From assembly GCA_963782215.1 (NCBI GenBank), contig CAWAJE010000001.1:3943-67942 (forward strand): DNA of 64,000 nt. The letters run 5' to 3'. A program made the position numbers and the translations under genes. The notes beneath the pieces are model-generated. The model made no database searches. It was not told where the DNA came from and saw only the letters and a program-made list of their open reading frames with translations. Shown piece by piece: positions 7,106 to 26,065 of this stretch (position 1 is the first letter of the stretch; the number at the start of each line of letters is the position of its first letter). The stretch is from an uncultured Actinomycetota bacterium (lineage in GTDB: Bacteria; Actinomycetota; Actinomycetes; Propionibacteriales; Nocardioidaceae).

Positions 7106-10100
7106 ATGGCCGACTCCGAGCGTCAGGGTGGGAGAAGGATGAAGGCTGAGTCTCCCCGCGGACGAGCCAGATTTCTGGCACGCCAGGTGCCACGCCAGGC
7201 GAAGCGGCGTGCAGCACGGGTGGTGCGTCGCCTCCGCAGCGGTCGCCCGCTGGCGACGGCGGTGGTGCTGTTGTCCGGGCCAGAGGACGCTGCCCGCGCA
7301 ACGCTCGACTCGGTCCGTGACCAACCGGTGGCAGCACTCGAGATCCTCGCGGTGGTCATGGACGAGCGTCTCGACGGGCTGGCCGCCTCCGCGGTCGCGG
7401 AGGACTGGAGGGTCCGTCGCCTGACGAGCGTGGGTGACGACCGAGCCGCAGCGCGTCGCGTGGGGTCGGCCGCGGCATGCACGCCTGCCTTGATCTTTCT
7501 CTCGCCCCGCCAGGTGCTGGTGCCCGGCGCGGTCGAGCGGCTCCTGGCCGAGTCCTCCGAGGGGACGGTGCTCGTGCTGGGCGGTGTCGACGGTGCCCCA
7601 GCCCCGTGGGCGCGCACACCTCTGCTGGGTCGGCTCTTGGTGCCGCGTGAGCTCTGGACGGCCGCGCACGATGACGGGGAGCCCGACGGCCAGACCGTCG
7701 CGGTCTCGCTGATGTCGACGGGCGCGGTCGAGGTGGACGCCGCTGTGCTCGGTGATCGCCATGTGCCGCGGGCCAAGCTGTTCGAACGCGGGGTCGACCC
7801 TATGCCGGCTTTGACTGCTCGGGTCGCTGCGGACTGCGCCATGCTGGAGCGCTTGGCAGGCGTCGACGGACTCTTGCGTGCGGCGCGTGCCACGGGTGCC
7901 TTGGTGCGCGATCTGCCGACCTTCGTCTTCGAGGCCGAGCGGGCGGACGAGAGCACCTGGCAGCTCCTGGTGGGGCACGCGTCCCGGCTGATGCTGGAGG
8001 CGGGCGCCGCGGGGGTTCGAGAGCTGGGCGTCGAGGAGCGTGTCGCCACCTGGTTGACCGCCGAGGGGCGTCGGGAGGCGCTGGTCGAGTTCGTGGCCGC
8101 CCGCCGGTTCGCCGGAGGTCACTTCGCGACGCGGGTCGTGGAGGGTCAGGTGCTGGCGCTGTTCGAGGCGCTGCCCGACGACGTCCCTGCCGAGATCGTG
8201 CTCCTGAGCGACGCCGAGAGCGGCCTGCGCGCACAGCTGCGCCGGAGCCGGGTCCGCGACGGCGCCCTTGAGGTCGAGGTGTTCGCCGGGATCCGGATGG
8301 CCGACCAAGGCACCGATGTCCTCGACGTCACGGCGTCGCTCGTCAGTGGCGCCGACCGGCTCGAGCTGTCGGTCGAGGTCGGTGCGGACATGGCGGTGAC
8401 GCGGTGGATGGGTGAGCCGCACCAGTACCACGACTTCGGCGTGCTCACCTGCCGGACTTCGCTGGACCTCCTGACGCCCGGATCCTGGCACCTGGACCTG
8501 GACGTGCACTGTGGCGGCGTACGACGCACCGGGCTGGTCTCAGAGCTCGACCCGCACGGCTCGGCCGCGCAGGAGCTGCGACTGGAGGACCGCAGCCTTC
8601 GGTGGACTCGGAGGTCGGACGCCGTGCAGCTGACGGTCACCGAACCGCCCGCTCCGCCCCCTGACCCGGGGACGATCGTCGTCCAAGACACCTCTTTCGG
8701 CCCGCGACGACTGGTGCTGAGCTTCGAGGCATCCGAGTCGGCGCGCGCGAGCCTGGTTGCTCCGGGCCAGGTGATCACCGGCGCGCGCGAAGGGAGCGAG
8801 TGGACCTTCGAGCTCGAGACCGACCCCTGGTCGCTCGGCATGATGCCGGCGCCGAGCGCGAGCTATCGGCTCGTCGTCACCGAGGACGGTGTCGAGCGCC
8901 CGGTGACCGCCGCTCGACGCGTGGTCGACCTGCTTCCGCGGGTCGACCAGGACGACGGGCACCGCAAGGCGCTGTGGGGTGGCCCGCGGGGGGGTCTGAC
9001 CCTCCGGCTGGACCCCCCGTTGGCTGAGGAGGTTGCCGGGCCGTGGGCTCAACGTCGGCTCCAGCGCCGGCACGCCACGATCGAGGGACCGGTCGATCCC
9101 AGGCTGGTGTACTTCCAGTCCTTCCTCGGCCAGTCGCCCACCGACCACCCTGCGGCCATCCAGACAGAGCTGCACCGGAGCCTGGGCGAGCGCGGGATCT
9201 CCGGCGTACGGACGCTCTGGGCGGTGGCGGATGCGTCCGTGCGCGTCCCCGAGGGCGCCGAGCCCGTGCTGATGCGCAGCCAGGAGTGGTACGACGCCCT
9301 GGCCCGCTCAGCGTGGGTGGTGACCAACATCGAGCTGGAACCGTGGTTCACCCGACGCGAGGGCCAGGAGGTGCTCGAGACCTACCACGGGTACCCCTCC
9401 AAGGCGATGGGCCTGAGCCAGTGGAGATCGCGAGGTCTGACCCCCAGCCACCAGCGCCAGATGCTGCAGCGGACCTCGGGGACGTGGAACAACCTGCTCA
9501 CCCCGATCCCGGAGATGGACCACTACTACCGCGAGAACTATGAGTTCGAGGGGCGGATCCTCTCCCTGGGCTATCCCCGCGACGACGCCCTTGTGTCCCC
9601 GACCCGTGACGAGCAGCGCCGCGCGGTACGCCGTCGCCTCGGTATCGGCGAGAACCAGTCGGCCGTGCTCTACGCCCCGACCTGGCGCGACGACCTCGCC
9701 ACCAACTTCCGCCGCGCCGAGGCACTCCTGCATCTCGACGTCGACGAGGCGGCCGCGGCGCTCGGGCCCGACTACGTGATCCTGCTGCGAGGCCATCGCT
9801 TCCATGCCGCCTCGGCGGGCGGCGCCCAGGTGCTGGACGTCACCACCTATCCGGAGATCAACGACCTGATCCTGGCCGCCGACGCCGCGGTCCTGGACTA
9901 CTCATCGCTCCGGTTCGACTTCGCTCTCACTGGGCGGCCCATGGTCTTCTTGGTCCCCGATCTCGACTCCTACACGCGGCAGACGCGCGGCTTCCTCTAC
10001 GACTTCGCGGACTCGGCGCCCGGTCCGTTCCTCGACACCACCTCCGAGGTGGTCGAGGCGCTCTCGGACCTGCCGGCGCTGCGCACCCGCTGGACGGCGC

Positions 10101-20425: not shown

Positions 20426-21811
20426 TCACCCCAGCGGGTCCTCTCGGCGGATGTCCACGATGTGCCCGGTCTCGCCGGAAACCAGTGTGGCCAAGGAGGC
20501 GCGGGCGACCTCTTGCGACGACAGCAGCGTGCCCGGCGGCTCCTCCCCGAAGGCCTTCGTGCGCATCGGGGTCGCGGTGCGCTCGGGATTGATGCAGTTG
20601 ACTCGCACGTTGCTGCCGCCCCACTCATCAGCCAGCGCCTGGGTCAGGTTGACGACGGCCGCCTTGGCAGAGGAGTACAGGCTGTACCCGCTTCGTCCTC
20701 GGGTGTACGAGCTCGAGGTGAAGAACAGCAGGCTGCCGCTGGTGGCCTCGAGATGTGGCAGGAACTCCTGCGCGATGAAGACGGGCGCCAGGTAGTTGAC
20801 CTCGGTCGAGGCGTAGATCGTCTCCTCCGAGGCGTCGCGCAGCGCTCCTCGTGGAAGCACGCCTGCGGCGTTCACCACCAGGTCGATGTGGTCCACTTCG
20901 GCCAGAACGGATGCCGCTGCCGCGGCGATGTCCTCTCGTCGCTCGACGTGCGTGCCCGTCCCCGAGCGACTGAACGCGAAGACCTGAGCGCCGTAGGCCC
21001 TGGCCATCGTCGCGATGTCGGCGCCGATTCCGTAGCTGCCACCGAACACGACGAGGGTCTTGCCCTCGAGTGACTCGCGGTACTGCTGGTCGGTCCACGT
21101 GGGAGCGACGTTCTGGCTCGTGAGCTGGAAGAGCTTGTCGGCCAGGTAGACGTCGATCGGGTCGGTGATCTTCATGTTGCGCTCATCGCCCACCACTACG
21201 GTGATCGGCACGTCCGGCAGGTAGCGCAGCACGACCGTGCAGTCATCAGTGGCGACGAAGTCCGCGTCCTCGGCCGCTACGGCGTAGGCACGCTTGATCA
21301 CTTCGCACCGGAACGCCTGTGGGGTCTGGCCCCGTCGAAGCCTCGATCGGGGCGGGATCTGCGTAATGGTGTGGTTCTCGTCGACCTCGATGATGGTGTC
21401 GGCCGAGGGGATCGCGACGTCGACCGCGTCGAACGTGTCCAGCGCCTCGAAGCACTCCCTGATGATTCGACCACTCACCAGTGGGCGGACGGCGTCGTGG
21501 AAGAGCACCTTGCTGGTCGGATCGGTCACTGTGGCGAGGGCACGCATCGTCGTCCCGTTGCGGGTCTCGGCACCCTCGAGGATCTGCGTGACCTTGGTGT
21601 AGCCGCCGACGTCCACGATGTAGCGGACCGCGTCGAGGTGCCCCGGAGCCATCATGATCACGACCTCATCGACGTCTGGGTGCGCGTTCACCGTGGCCAG
21701 TGTGTGTTCGAGGATCGTGCGTCCGGCGATCTTGATCAGCTGCTTCGGGATATCGAGGCCCACCCGGGTACCGACCCCGCCAGCGAGGATCACTGCGACG
21801 TTGCTGCTCAT
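20426..21811 (-). CDS. bifunctional cytidylyltransferase (IspD/TarI)/SDR reductase, Bcs1-like CDP-ribitol synthase
   Basis: LAGGVGTRVG..PKQ, HDAVRP, QTPQAF, TDD, NMKIT; then SDR GGSYGIG, NAAG, YSSAK. Confidence 0.9.
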   Translation of the reverse strand: MSSNVAVILAGGVGTRVGLDIPKQLIKIAGRTILEHTLATVNAHPDVDEVVIMMAPGHLDAVRYIVDVGGYTKVTQILEGAETRNGTTMRALATVTDPTSKVLFHDAVRPLVSGRIIRECFEALDTFDAVDVAIPSADTIIEVDENHTITQIPPRSRLRRGQTPQAFRCEVIKRAYAVAAEDADFVATDDCTVVLRYLPDVPITVVVGDERNMKITDPIDVYLADKLFQLTSQNVAPTWTDQQYRESLEGKTLVVFGGSYGIGADIATMARAYGAQVFAFSRSGTGTHVERREDIAAAAASVLAEVDHIDLVVNAAGVLPRGALRDASEETIYASTEVNYLAPVFIAQEFLPHLEATSGSLLFFTSSSYTRGRSGYSLYSSAKAAVVNLTQALADEWGGSNVRVNCINPERTATPMRTKAFGEEPPGTLLSSQEVARASLATLVSGETGHIVDIRREDPLG

Positions 21812-22077
21812 GAGGCGGTTCCTCCTGGATCGTCCGGACAGGCTACGAACGGATGCGGTGGTCCTCTGCCGGTCAGCCGCCCGAGTGGCGCGACCCTATC
21901 GCGCACCAACGGTCGGCTGCGGTGCGGACCGCCGCCCGCGACGCACTCCTCCCGTGTGACGAAGCACACCGATTGACCCATTCCCACGCTTTCGTTCCTC
22001 GGCGTACGCTCGAACTGCACGAATCAACGAGTAGTCCGGTACCCGAGAGGGACTGGAACGAAAGGCGATGAGTTTCG

Positions 22078-23031
22078 ATGGCCCGAATCGGGGTTGTCGG
22101 CGCCGGCCGTGTCGGTGCCGTCCTGTCCGCCGCTCTCCGCGCGGCTGGTCACGAGATCGTGGCCGCAGCGGGGGACTCGGCTGCCTCCTTGCACCGCATC
22201 GACACGCTGCTCCCCGGGATCCGGTCCGCCAAGCCGACCGACGTGGCGCGCTCGTGCGACCTGCTGCTGCTGACCGTGCCCGACGACATGCTCGAGAACG
22301 TCGTCAGCACGCTCGTGGGCGCCCGCGCGATCCGCTCCGGCCAAGTCGTGTGCCACACCTCGGGTCGTCACGGGCTGGCCGTGCTCGAGTCGGCGACCGC
22401 CATCGGCGCCCGGCCGATCGCGATGCATCCGGCGATGACCTTCACCGGCACCGAGGTGGACCTCGCCCGGCTCGAGGGCTGCGTCTTCGGCGTCACCGCC
22501 GGCGCGCCGGAGCGGGAGTACGCCGAGGGTCTCGTCGACGATCTCGGTGGGATCGCGATGTGGGTGCCGGAGGACAAGCGCACGCTCTACCACGCAGGTC
22601 TGGCCCACGGGGCGAACCACCTGGTCACCCTGGTCAGCCAAGCGATGGAGCTGCTCGCCGCCTCGGGGGCGGAGGACCCGGCCGCCACCCTGCGTCCGCT
22701 GCTGACCGCCGCGCTCGACAACGCCCTCGCCGAGGGAGACGCGGCGCTGACCGGCCCGATCGTGCGCGGTGACGTGCGCACCGTGCAGGCCCACCTCGCC
22801 GACATCGCCGAGACCGCCCCCGCGACCATCCCGTCCTACGTCGCGATGGCGAAGGCCACCGCCGACCGGGCCGTGCTCAACGGCCGGCTGCTGCCGATCC
22901 GGGCGGGCGCGATCGTCGCCGTCCTGGACCGGGCACTGGCCGCCGTCGGCGAGCCCCCGCTCGGCCCGCCACGACCCACCACCCGCGCGTCCCGACACAC
23001 CACCCGGGCCACCCGGAGCGACTACCGGTGA
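22078..23031 (+). CDS. Rossmann-like/DUF2520 protein (PanG-type ketopantoate reductase)
   Basis: [36 protein letters not shown]; directly upstream of panC. Confidence 0.88.
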
Positions 23032-23894
23032 CGCCGGCCCCCGTCCTCGCGAGCACTCGCGGGGAGCTCGGCCATGCCCTGCGCCGGACCGCCACCGGCC
23101 GGCAGGCCCCGCGCGTGGCGCTGGTGCCGACGATGGGCGCGCTGCACGTGGGGCACGCCTCCTTGATGACCCGCGCCCGCGAGGAGGTGGGGCCGACCGG
23201 GCCGGTGGTCGTCTCGATCTTCGTGAACCCGATGCAGTTCGCCCCCGGTGAGGACCTGGACCGCTACCCCCGGACCCTGGAGGCCGACCTCGAGCTCTGC
23301 GCCGAGCAGGGCGTCGATGTGGTCTTCTGCCCGGGGACCGATGAGGTCTACCCCGGGGGCCCGACGCTGGTCAGCGTCGACCCGGGGCCGCTGGCCGGCG
23401 TACTCGAGGGTGCGTCGCGGCCCACCCACTTCCGAGGCGTGCTCACCGTGGTCGCCAAGCTGTTCGGGCTGGTCCGGCCCGACGTCGCGGTCTTCGGTGA
23501 GAAGGACTACCAGCAGCTGGCGCTGATCCGGCGGATGGCTGCCGACCTGTGTCTCGGGGTCGAGGTGCTGGGAGCCGCCACCGTCCGCGAGCCCGACGGC
23601 CTGGCGCTGTCGAGCCGCAACCGCTTCCTCGACCCCACGCAGAGGGAGGCAGCGACCGCGCTCTCGCGGGCACTGTTCGCCGGACGCGCCGCCGGCACCC
23701 AGGGCGTCGAGGCGGTGCTGGGGGCAGCCCAGCAGCAGCTGGCGGCCGAGCCGGGGGTGGAGCTGGACTACCTCGAGCTCACCGACCCCGACCTCGGCCC
23801 CGCCCCGCAGACCGGTGCCGCGCGGCTGCTGGTCGCGGCCCGCGTGGGCACCACTCGACTGATCGACAACGTCGCTCTCGACCTGAAGGGATGA
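23028..23894 (+). CDS. panC: pantoate-beta-alanine ligase
   Basis: [48 protein letters not shown]. Confidence 0.97.
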
Positions 23895-23898
23895 GCAG

Positions 23899-24360
23899 AT
23901 GCTGCGCACCATGATGAAGAGCAAGATCCACCGGGCGACGGTCACCCAGGCCGACCTGCACTACGTGGGGTCGGTGACCGTCGACGAGGACCTCCTCGAC
24001 GCGGCCGACCTGCTTCCGGGTGAGCTCGTGCACATCGTCGACGTCACCAACGGGGCTCGGCTGGAGACCTACACGATCGCGGGCGAGCGTGGCTCCGGGG
24101 TCCTCGGCATCAACGGCGCCGCCGCACACCTGGTGCACCCCGGCGACGTGGTGATCCTGATCGCCTACGCCCAGATGGAGACCGCCGAGGCGCGCGACTT
24201 CCGGCCCAGCGTGGTCTTCGTCGACCAGCACAACGCCGTGCTCGCCACCGGCTCGGACCCCGCCGAGGCACTCCCCGGCTCGGAGCTGGTCCGGGGCGAC
24301 CTGCACAGCTTCGCTCCCTCCGACCTGGTCGCTGCTCGCCCGCAGAACCACCTCGTATGA
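23899..24360 (+). CDS. panD: aspartate 1-decarboxylase
   Basis: [16 protein letters not shown] pyruvoyl cleavage site, [13 protein letters not shown]. Confidence 0.97.
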
Positions 24361-24394: not shown

Positions 24395-26065
24395 ATGACC
24401 AACTCGTCGAGCGTGCATCGCGGTGGGCTTCCCGGCCGGCTGGCTTCGGGCGAACCAGGCTGGAGCACCGATGCCGACGTCGTGGTGGTCGGCTCGGGCA
24501 TCGCCGGCCTGACCGCCGCGCTGCGACTGCGGCACCACGTCAGCAAGATCCTCGTCGTCACCAAGGACGTGCTCTCGGCCGGCTCGACGCAGTGGGCGCA
24601 GGGTGGCATCGCCGCGGCGCTCGGACCCGAGGACACCCCCGAGCAGCACGAGCACGACACCCTGGTGGCCGGCGCGGGCGCCTGCGACCCCGAGGCGGTC
24701 CGCATCTTGGTCAACGAGGGCCCCGAGGCCGTACGCGAGCTGATCGCTCTGGGCGCCATCTTCGACCACTCCGCCGAGGGTGAGCTGTCGCTGACCCGCG
24801 AGGGGGGCCACCACCGGGACCGGATCGCGCACGCGGGCGGGGACGCCACCGGAGCCGAGATCCAGCGTGCCCTGATCGCGGCCATCCAGGCAGCTCCTGA
24901 CATCGAGGTGGTCGAGCACGCCCTGGCCGTCGACCTGCTGCTCGCCGAGGACGGAGGCGTCGCCGGAATCACCCTGCACGTGATGGGAGAGGGGCAGCGC
25001 GACGGCATCGGCGCGGTCCGGTGCCGGGCAGTGGTGCTGGCCTCCGGGGGGCTGGGGCAGGTCTTCTCCCAGACCACCAACCCCGCCGTGACCACCGGCG
25101 ACGGCATGGCACTGGCACTGCGTGCCGGTGCCGTGCTGCGCGACCTGGAGTTCGTGCAGTTCCACCCGACCGTGATGTACCTCGGCCCCGACTCCCGCGG
25201 CCAGCAGCCGCTGATCAGCGAGGCGGTGCGTGGCGAGGGTGCATTCCTCGTCGACTTCGAGGGCGCCCGCTTCATGCAGGGGCAGCACGAGCTGGCCGAC
25301 CTCGCGCCCCGCGACGTGGTCGCGAAGGCGATCACCCGGCGGATGCACGAGACCGGCCAGCCGCACATGTGGCTCGACGCCCGCCACCTCGGGCGTGAGT
25401 TCTGGGAGGCGCGCTTCCCCACGATCCTGGTGACCTGTCGCAGCCACGGGGTCGACCCGGTCACCGACCTGATCCCGGTCGCGCCCGCCTGCCACTACGC
25501 CTCCGGGGGCGTGGCGACCGACCTGTGGGGACGTGCCAGCGTGCCCGGCCTCTACGCCACCGGGGAGGTGGCCTGCTCCGGCGTGCACGGCGCCAACCGG
25601 TTGGCCTCCAACTCGCTCCTCGAGGGACTGGTCTTCTCCCGCAGGATCGCCGAGGTGCTCCCGGGCGAGCTGCGCGACCTGGTCGACCTGCGCCACGACG
25701 AGCGGGCCAGCGGGCTGGTCTCGGCCGACGTGCGCACCGACCTGCAGTCCGTGATGACCGACAAGGTCGGGGTGCTGCGCTCCGCCGAGGGGCTCGCGGC
25801 AGCGCTCGACGAGCTCGTTGCGCTGGGAGAGAAGCCCGGCGACGTCGGCACCCCGGCCTGGGAGGCGACCAACCTGCTGATGATCAGCATCGCGCTGGCC
25901 GAGGCGGCCGCCCGGCGCGAGGAGACCCGCGGCTCCCACTGGCGCGAGGACCACCCCGAGCGCGACGACGCGAGGATGTCCGGCCACTTCGACGTCACCC
26001 TCGGCGCCGACGGTCTCACGATGTCCTTCACCCCTGCCGCCCCCTCCGACGGGGGCGTCGGATGA
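24395..26065 (+). CDS. nadB: L-aspartate oxidase
   Basis: GSGIAGL, WAQGGIAA, TREGGH, QFHPT, SEAVRGEG, HGANRLASNSLLEG. Confidence 0.96.
   Translation: MTNSSSVHRGGLPGRLASGEPGWSTDADVVVVGSGIAGLTAALRLRHHVSKILVVTKDVLSAGSTQWAQGGIAAALGPEDTPEQHEHDTLVAGAGACDPEAVRILVNEGPEAVRELIALGAIFDHSAEGELSLTREGGHHRDRIAHAGGDATGAEIQRALIAAIQAAPDIEVVEHALAVDLLLAEDGGVAGITLHVMGEGQRDGIGAVRCRAVVLASGGLGQVFSQTTNPAVTTGDGMALALRAGAVLRDLEFVQFHPTVMYLGPDSRGQQPLISEAVRGEGAFLVDFEGARFMQGQHELADLAPRDVVAKAITRRMHETGQPHMWLDARHLGREFWEARFPTILVTCRSHGVDPVTDLIPVAPACHYASGGVATDLWGRASVPGLYATGEVACSGVHGANRLASNSLLEGLVFSRRIAEVLPGELRDLVDLRHDERASGLVSADVRTDLQSVMTDKVGVLRSAEGLAAALDELVALGEKPGDVGTPAWEATNLLMISIALAEAAARREETRGSHWREDHPERDDARMSGHFDVTLGADGLTMSFTPAAPSDGGVG

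Follow-up and report, generated by a model that had tools for sequence, protein, structure and literature searches.

A pan-like single hairpin at the ribosome-binding site of the panG-panC-panD operon of Actinomycetota: a candidate translational operator

The pan motif (RF01749) is an RNA motif whose hairpins occur mostly in tandem upstream of panB, panC or panD. The tandem arrangement suggested a dimeric protein site, and the motif has been described in three phyla, Actinomycetota not among them (Weinberg et al., 2010, Genome Biol 11:R31, PMC2864571). Its published consensus consists of three base pairs, an A bulge in the 3' strand, five base pairs, an A bulge in the 5' strand and an upper helix (PMC2864571). 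Single copies of the motif occur in delta-proteobacteria (supplement, PMC2864571). The literature searched describes neither a pan leader in actinobacteria nor a ligand for pan, and we found in it no report of the motif's partner. The DNA considered here is a stretch of 64,000 nucleotides (the window; forward strand of contig CAWAJE010000001.1, positions 3,943 to 67,942) from an uncultured actinobacterium of the family Nocardioidaceae (GCA_963782215.1). A hairpin in the leader of its panG-panC-panD operon appears pan-like in architecture and context, and by sequence comparison it seems to be an uncatalogued single-hairpin relative of the pan motif rather than a plain member of RF01749.

The hairpin, UCCGGU-A-CCC GAGA GGG ACUGGA, lies at 22035-22057 and spans 22034-22059 (26 bases) when its closing pair is included. 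It was picked out in a sequence-only reading of the window, and the letters given there for the hairpin, for a Shine-Dalgarno-like GAAAGG at 22060-22065 and for a TACGCT hexamer at 22005-22010 all stand at these positions. The same reading likened the hairpin to the bulged-A pan motif. This likeness holds, because the architecture is that of the published consensus: a closing helix of 3 bp, a bulged A in the 3' strand, 5 bp, a bulged A in the 5' strand, 2-3 bp and a variable loop. The bracket pattern equals the pan consensus when U22035 pairs with A22058 and A22057 bulges. The same pattern was obtained from the ViennaRNA fold of a Streptomyces copy and from the register picked by R2, a covariance model that we built from 13 published pan hairpin-2 sequences.

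Pan hairpins and the actinobacterial hairpin share two conserved bulged adenines, one per strand and five pairs apart, and both lie upstream of pantothenate synthesis genes. Compared by eye, pan hairpin 1 (CAGU-A-UCC...GGA-ACUGC) has a core, GU-A-UCC/GGA-ACUG, in common with a variant of the hairpin found in other (sister) classes of the phylum. This variant reads GGU-A-UCC...GGA-ACUGG, whereas the version in the class Actinomycetes reads GGU-A-CC...GG-ACUGG. One U:A pair of the upper helix is absent from the Actinomycetes class on both strands together and present in the sister-class variant, and in this the class version differs from pan. Some copies of pan hairpin 2 are identical at 14 of 16 positions to the actinobacterial 3' arm and Shine-Dalgarno region, and in the actinobacterial hairpin, too, the 3' arm runs into a purine-rich Shine-Dalgarno sequence. 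Unlike the mostly tandem pan hairpins, the actinobacterial element is a single hairpin per leader with one match per genome. Another difference from pan is its place: it is apparently 5'-terminal in the mRNA, sits immediately on the ribosome-binding site and has no terminator.

The hairpin is more than a chance fold. Taken alone it has a predicted free energy of -13.6 kcal/mol (z = -2.7), and the opposite strand has -8.6 kcal/mol (z = -1.1). The opposite strand folds 5 kcal/mol worse because G-U pairs turn into C-A, and the conserved G22038:U22054 wobble therefore makes the structure strand-specific. Across copies, stability is moderate (-9 to -13.6 kcal/mol). The helix between the two bulges is nearly two-fold symmetric, with CYGG on each strand, and it holds a tandem G-U in many species, namely those with U at 22037.

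A covariance model built from the hairpin (R1) was searched over genomes of the host, its order, its class and Mycobacterium. The host genome has one strong match (59.7 bits), and all others have E > 0.2. In two families of the order, 41 of 44 and 43 of 44 genomes carry one copy per genome. Matches were found in 97 of the 151 sampled class genomes, almost always single, and 101 of 121 Mycobacterium genomes have one match each. The class sample includes five unpublished genomes (G187, from which locus L086 comes, G196, G208, G204 and G215), and no claim depends solely on these five. Among the matches listed in an exact-pattern scan were Streptomyces, Nocardia, Mycobacterium, Mycobacteroides, Actinomadura, Amycolatopsis, Pseudonocardia, Frankia, Blastococcus, Klenkia, Nocardioides and Marmoricola. 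The sequence-only reading had proposed a cis-acting RNA element in this leader, and comparison of orthologous leaders bears this out; the hairpin is kept in nearly every relative, far more widely than that reading assumed.

The element is found at pan genes almost without exception. When 60 class matches were fetched, 59 lay directly 5' of panG (50) or panC (9), and the lone match with no pan gene (L264) is a partial one. The hairpin likewise directly precedes panG or panC in nine further loci, and the variant hairpin is directly before a panG-like gene or panC in 14 of 16 sister-class loci. The hairpin is thus tied to the pan operon rather than to the DUF2520 domain of the panG product as such, the nine class loci directly before panC being the telling cases. 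Upstream of weak DUF2520 homologues (family f4, L028-L030) there is no hairpin, and these are probably not orthologous leaders. We also considered a wider regulon, since six genomes gave second matches. Five of these lie within coding sequence (four of them in the same W-Y-P...D-W-N stretch), and the sixth precedes an unrelated open reading frame and is without the GGUACC core; being coding or core-less, they are not real copies and give no regulon.

Orthologous loci were fetched, and their upstream regions were aligned and read for the genus and the order. Three blocks are conserved in the genus: a TGTGA-N6-YMACC box, CGTANNNT with the -10 hexamer, and the hairpin together with the AACGAAAGG tail that follows it. 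In a set of 120 distinct hairpins, 21 positions hardly vary (G-U-C-Y-G-G-U-A-C-C ... G-G-A-C-U-G-G-A-A-C), and the bulges at A22041 and A22057/58 are invariant. This sequence constraint goes far beyond what pairing demands, and a core that varies so little leaves almost no covariation available. Genus pair counts show a compensatory change from C:G to G:C at 22036:22056 in three species and a change from C:G to U:A in the top pair, with the G-U wobble kept. From the invariant CC in the 5' arm to the invariant GG in the 3' arm, the intervening sequence with the loop ranges from 5 to 46 nt.

In a sister genus of the same family (g11; L063, L066-L082, L084), the terminal loop is swapped for an extension of 30-50 nt, CCC-ACA-CCGGC(variable stem)G-UGG-UCGG-A-GGG. 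Conservation covers the base of this extension and its UGG bulge, and the top of the inserted stem covaries, with changes on both sides in four pairs.

The sequence-only reading cautioned that TACGCT may be a -10 box, and the caution was well placed, as a TANNNT hexamer is conserved here across the genus and the class. Of 130 loci, 125 have it no more than 45 nt ahead of the hairpin's first base, usually at 6-25 nt and never at less than 6; in neighbouring coding sequence the background is 0.0002 per nt. With the hexamer this close upstream, the transcript would start at, or a few bases before, the hairpin, and in the window we infer a start near 22017. The differential RNA sequencing list for Streptomyces coelicolor (PMC4895711 Supplementary Data 1) gives TSS-1537, at position 3748929 of AL645882 on the minus strand, as the primary transcription start site of SCO3384, by synteny a presumed panG homologue. 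The first in-frame start codon comes 0-12 nt after the hairpin in most class loci, and in many of them the sole GGA at Shine-Dalgarno distance sits inside the 3' arm. The pan leader of the window has no intrinsic (U-tract) terminator, and any control therefore acts on translation initiation or mRNA stability.

Two further features lie around the panG start. The genus conserves a GAUGA at 22066-22071, whose out-of-frame AUG (22068) precedes the true start by 10 nt; it may simply extend pairing with the 16S 3' end (GAAAGGNGAUGA versus AGAAAGGAGGUGAUC). A predicted 9-bp hairpin (CGAUGGCCC/GGGUUGUCG) at 22076-22099 covers the panG start codon; because it overlaps the conserved codons M-A-R-I-G-V-V, its conservation is uninterpretable.

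Protein-bound autoregulatory translational operators, such as the E. coli thrS operator and the leaders of ribosomal-protein operons, are small structures next to the ribosome-binding site of one operon that block the 30S subunit when bound. As the hairpin described here abuts the ribosome-binding site, and as its 3' arm often holds the sole GGA, we propose that it is a translational operator of comparable kind, a pan-like single hairpin acting on the panG-panC-panD mRNA, probably through a dimeric protein. We place about even confidence in this reading as a whole. On this view 22034-22059 encodes a small structured RNA that lies at the 5' end of the message or close to it, and its nearly two-fold-symmetric helix and pair of bulged adenines are what an effector would recognise. 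We favour a dimeric protein in this role and think a pathway metabolite less likely. Binding would lock the hairpin in its closed form and deny the 30S subunit access to the start site, so that pantothenate synthesis would come under feedback control; being terminal, the hairpin may also shield the 5' end from decay. The structure of the hairpin, its conservation, single copy per genome, position and gene association are established, whereas the transcript start, the existence of an effector and the direction of control are inferred. A dimeric binder would suit the symmetry of the hairpin, but the comparison with thrS is an analogy of mechanism only, and unlike the thrS and ribosomal-protein operators the pan-like hairpin has no evident mimicry of a tRNA or rRNA site.

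A bolder form of the proposal is that the operator is read by a dimeric enzyme of the pathway, or that it is among the smallest natural metabolite sensors. The homodimeric, adenylate-forming PanC would be a candidate reader, with the flipped-out adenines in its nucleotide sites. We regard this bolder form as quite unlikely. If a dimeric pathway enzyme were the reader, enzyme-mRNA autoregulation of pantothenate synthesis would extend across Actinomycetota, and by extension to the orphan pan motif elsewhere.

Several results weigh against the operator reading and its kinship with pan. An Rfam scan of the window, which the sequence-only reading had put forward as a check, gave no family at the gathering threshold and no match to pan (RF01749, gathering score 36.2 bits). 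The RF01749 model also had no match at E <= 10 in 21780-22200, in the whole genome or in 12 sister-class loci, and no Rfam family reached E <= 10 save a chance C0299 match. With the R2 model, six of nine matches at E <= 10 fell on true hairpins, and these scored too low to settle membership either way (9.8-14.5 bits, E 0.28-6.3). Since neither model gives a significant detection, the kinship with pan rests on architecture and on motifs compared by eye. Covariation in the class alignment is not above the shuffle control, and in the core it is scarce. The GAAAGG Shine-Dalgarno sequence of the window is unpaired in the minimum-free-energy fold, so repression would need steric blocking and not sequestration. 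The position of the transcript start is a prediction from a consensus hexamer, and no effector could be identified from the present data.

The best R2 match in the window lies elsewhere, at 8474-8509 in a wall-polymer gene cluster (18.6 bits, E = 0.02), above the true hairpin. It is probably a chance match in coding sequence.

Regulated leaders are expected to hold alternative structures. For the window and its genus, the consensus fold gives the hairpin only, with no conserved alternative structure (expression platform). In family f66 of another class of the phylum (L291-L293, L298, L302, L303), the leaders have the GU-A-UCC variant hairpin. There, a conserved CCUCCUUCC downstream can pair with the GGAA(C)GGAGG tail of the motif and so compete with the lower helix, as would befit a regulated leader; this alternative structure is absent from the window. 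A further conserved hairpin, CCCGCGCG...CGCGUGG, encloses the likely Shine-Dalgarno sequence and start codon in these leaders, and together the f66 elements look like a multi-hairpin expression platform.

Other explanations of the conserved hairpin have to be set against a protein-bound operator. The element could be a minimal riboswitch in which the hairpin, alone or as an RNA dimer, directly binds a metabolite of the pathway, for instance pantothenate, coenzyme A (CoA), pantoate or beta-alanine, and thereby shuts the ribosome-binding site. The extreme conservation of primary sequence in a pathway-specific leader, the gene content, which fits metabolite feedback, and the competing downstream helix of f66 all speak for this idea. 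On the other side, a 26-nt hairpin with two single-nucleotide bulges has scant space for a binding pocket, the loop varies and can be replaced, and no ligand of pan was found in the literature searched; we consider a riboswitch unlikely. Stabilising stem-loops at mRNA 5' ends, such as the hairpin of the ompA 5' untranslated region, offer another model, in which the hairpin would be constitutive, would protect the pan mRNA from 5'-end-dependent decay and would sense nothing. Like ompA-type stabilisers, the pan-like hairpin would lie at or a few nt from the 5' end; the -10 hexamer is only 6-7 nt from the first hairpin base in many lineages, which would put the stem at the very end of the transcript, and its moderate stability is compatible with this role. 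Protection needs only a stem, yet 21 positions, both bulged adenines and the G-U wobble are fixed across the class. The element occurs once per genome, at the pan operon, and the same architecture is found at pan genes in other phyla, whereas ompA-type stabilisers are neither conserved in sequence across a class nor bound to a pathway. A purely protective role is accordingly improbable in our judgement.

Two explanations that place the function outside a simple hairpin fare worse. The inverted repeat might be a DNA operator, a transcription-factor site overlapping the transcription start, and in its favour the invariant GGTACC is a palindrome and the -10 hexamer is found just ahead of the element. 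But the arms, asymmetric and bearing G-T "mismatches", are spaced 5-46 nt apart; one genus has a covarying stem between them; the changes are compensatory; the orientation to the gene is fixed; and one strand alone folds well. The range of loop lengths, the inserted stem, the compensatory changes and the strand asymmetry indicate an RNA structure rather than a DNA operator, which we think highly improbable. The sequence-only reading had instead proposed a two-state switch, in which pairing of 21989-21998 with 22055-22064 competes with the hairpin, opening its base and covering the Shine-Dalgarno sequence. Its observation was correct in that CUUUCGUUCC (21989-21998) exactly complements GGAACGAAAG (22055-22064); a specific 10-mer complement of this kind is rare by chance (5e-5), and the minimum-free-energy fold of 21987-22090 uses it. 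The pairing is neither conserved nor above chance expectation, however. Dinucleotide shuffles of the 289-nt region contain some exact inverted repeat of at least 10 nt in 8.8% of cases, the 104-nt fold of 21987-22090 has z = -0.86, and relatives keep only 4-6 nt of the complement (5 nt in the closest relative, at 91% protein identity). Moreover, the competitor strand is upstream of the conserved TANNNT hexamer and so most likely untranscribed from the putative TACGCT promoter. The switch can hardly be credited.

We also looked at an outer helix between a leader UCAUYG and the CGAUGA that follows the Shine-Dalgarno sequence. It is not in the consensus fold, and its complementarity (mean 5.6) is on a par with that of shuffles (5.0), and it was rejected. 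In the genus, the -35 region repeatedly holds GTTCC or ATTCC some 19-20 nt before the -10 hexamer (21994-21998 here). Being the complement of the motif's GGAAC, this pentamer accounts for part of the 10-nt match on which the switch was based. On the minus strand GTTCC reads GGAAC, like a -35 element of the extracytoplasmic function (ECF) type for the divergent gene.

With this element, pan-like hairpins reach a fourth phylum, Actinomycetota, as a tiny single hairpin on the ribosome-binding site. The element is nearly invariant from Nocardioides to Streptomyces, Nocardia, Frankia and most of the Mycobacterium species sampled. The tandem-hairpin pan model of Rfam misses such single-hairpin relatives. 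Because genetically tractable hosts such as M. smegmatis and S. coelicolor are on hand and the minimal RNA has only about 27 nt, it becomes possible to test what pan RNAs sense. The synthesis of pantothenate and CoA is a studied drug-target pathway in mycobacteria, and an unrecognised control element on the expression of panG, panC and panD would be of interest to that field. The features of the locus are collected in Table 1.

Table 1. Features of the pan leader and operon (positions in the window).
Feature	Position	Strand	Remarks
Upstream complement CUUUCGUUCC, judged not part of the element	21989..21998	+	7-16 nt upstream of the -10 hexamer
-10-like hexamer TACGCT (TANNNT)	22005..22010	+	Column block conserved across the genus; promoter function predicted
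Predicted transcription start zone	22016..22020	+	6-10 nt past the -10 hexamer; conserved GCACG in the genus
Hairpin 5' arm, G-UCCGGU-A-CCC, bulged A at 22041	22034..22044	+	Nearly invariant in 120 distinct hairpins
Terminal loop GAGA	22045..22048	+	Sequence and length vary among relatives
Hairpin 3' arm, GGG-ACUGGA-A-C, bulged A at 22057 or 22058, closing pair G22034:C22059	22049..22059	+	
Shine-Dalgarno-like GAAAGG, directly 3' of the hairpin	22060..22065	+	Purine-rich tail in most lineages
panG-like gene, Rossmann-like domain and DUF2520, first gene of the operon	22078..23031	+	Pfam PF10727, PF10728
panC, pantoate-beta-alanine ligase	23028..23894	+	Pfam PF02569, E = 1.3e-94
panD, aspartate 1-decarboxylase	23899..24360	+	Pfam PF02261, E = 6.2e-51

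The upstream neighbour of panG is divergent, and the operon promoter must therefore sit in the 266-nt gap before panG. Within this gap, the TGTGA-N6-YMACC box conserved in the genus lies at 21955-21970, about 35-50 nt upstream of the -10 hexamer, and resembles a half-palindrome of the CRP/FNR type. A sister genus has GTGAC-N4-GTCAC at a similar place. The box may bind a transcription factor that serves either the pan promoter or the divergent one. On the other side of the operon, an L-aspartate-oxidase-like (nadB-type) gene follows panD in the same direction (24395-26065), and two aspartate-consuming enzymes, the panD product and the nadB-type enzyme, may thus be co-transcribed.
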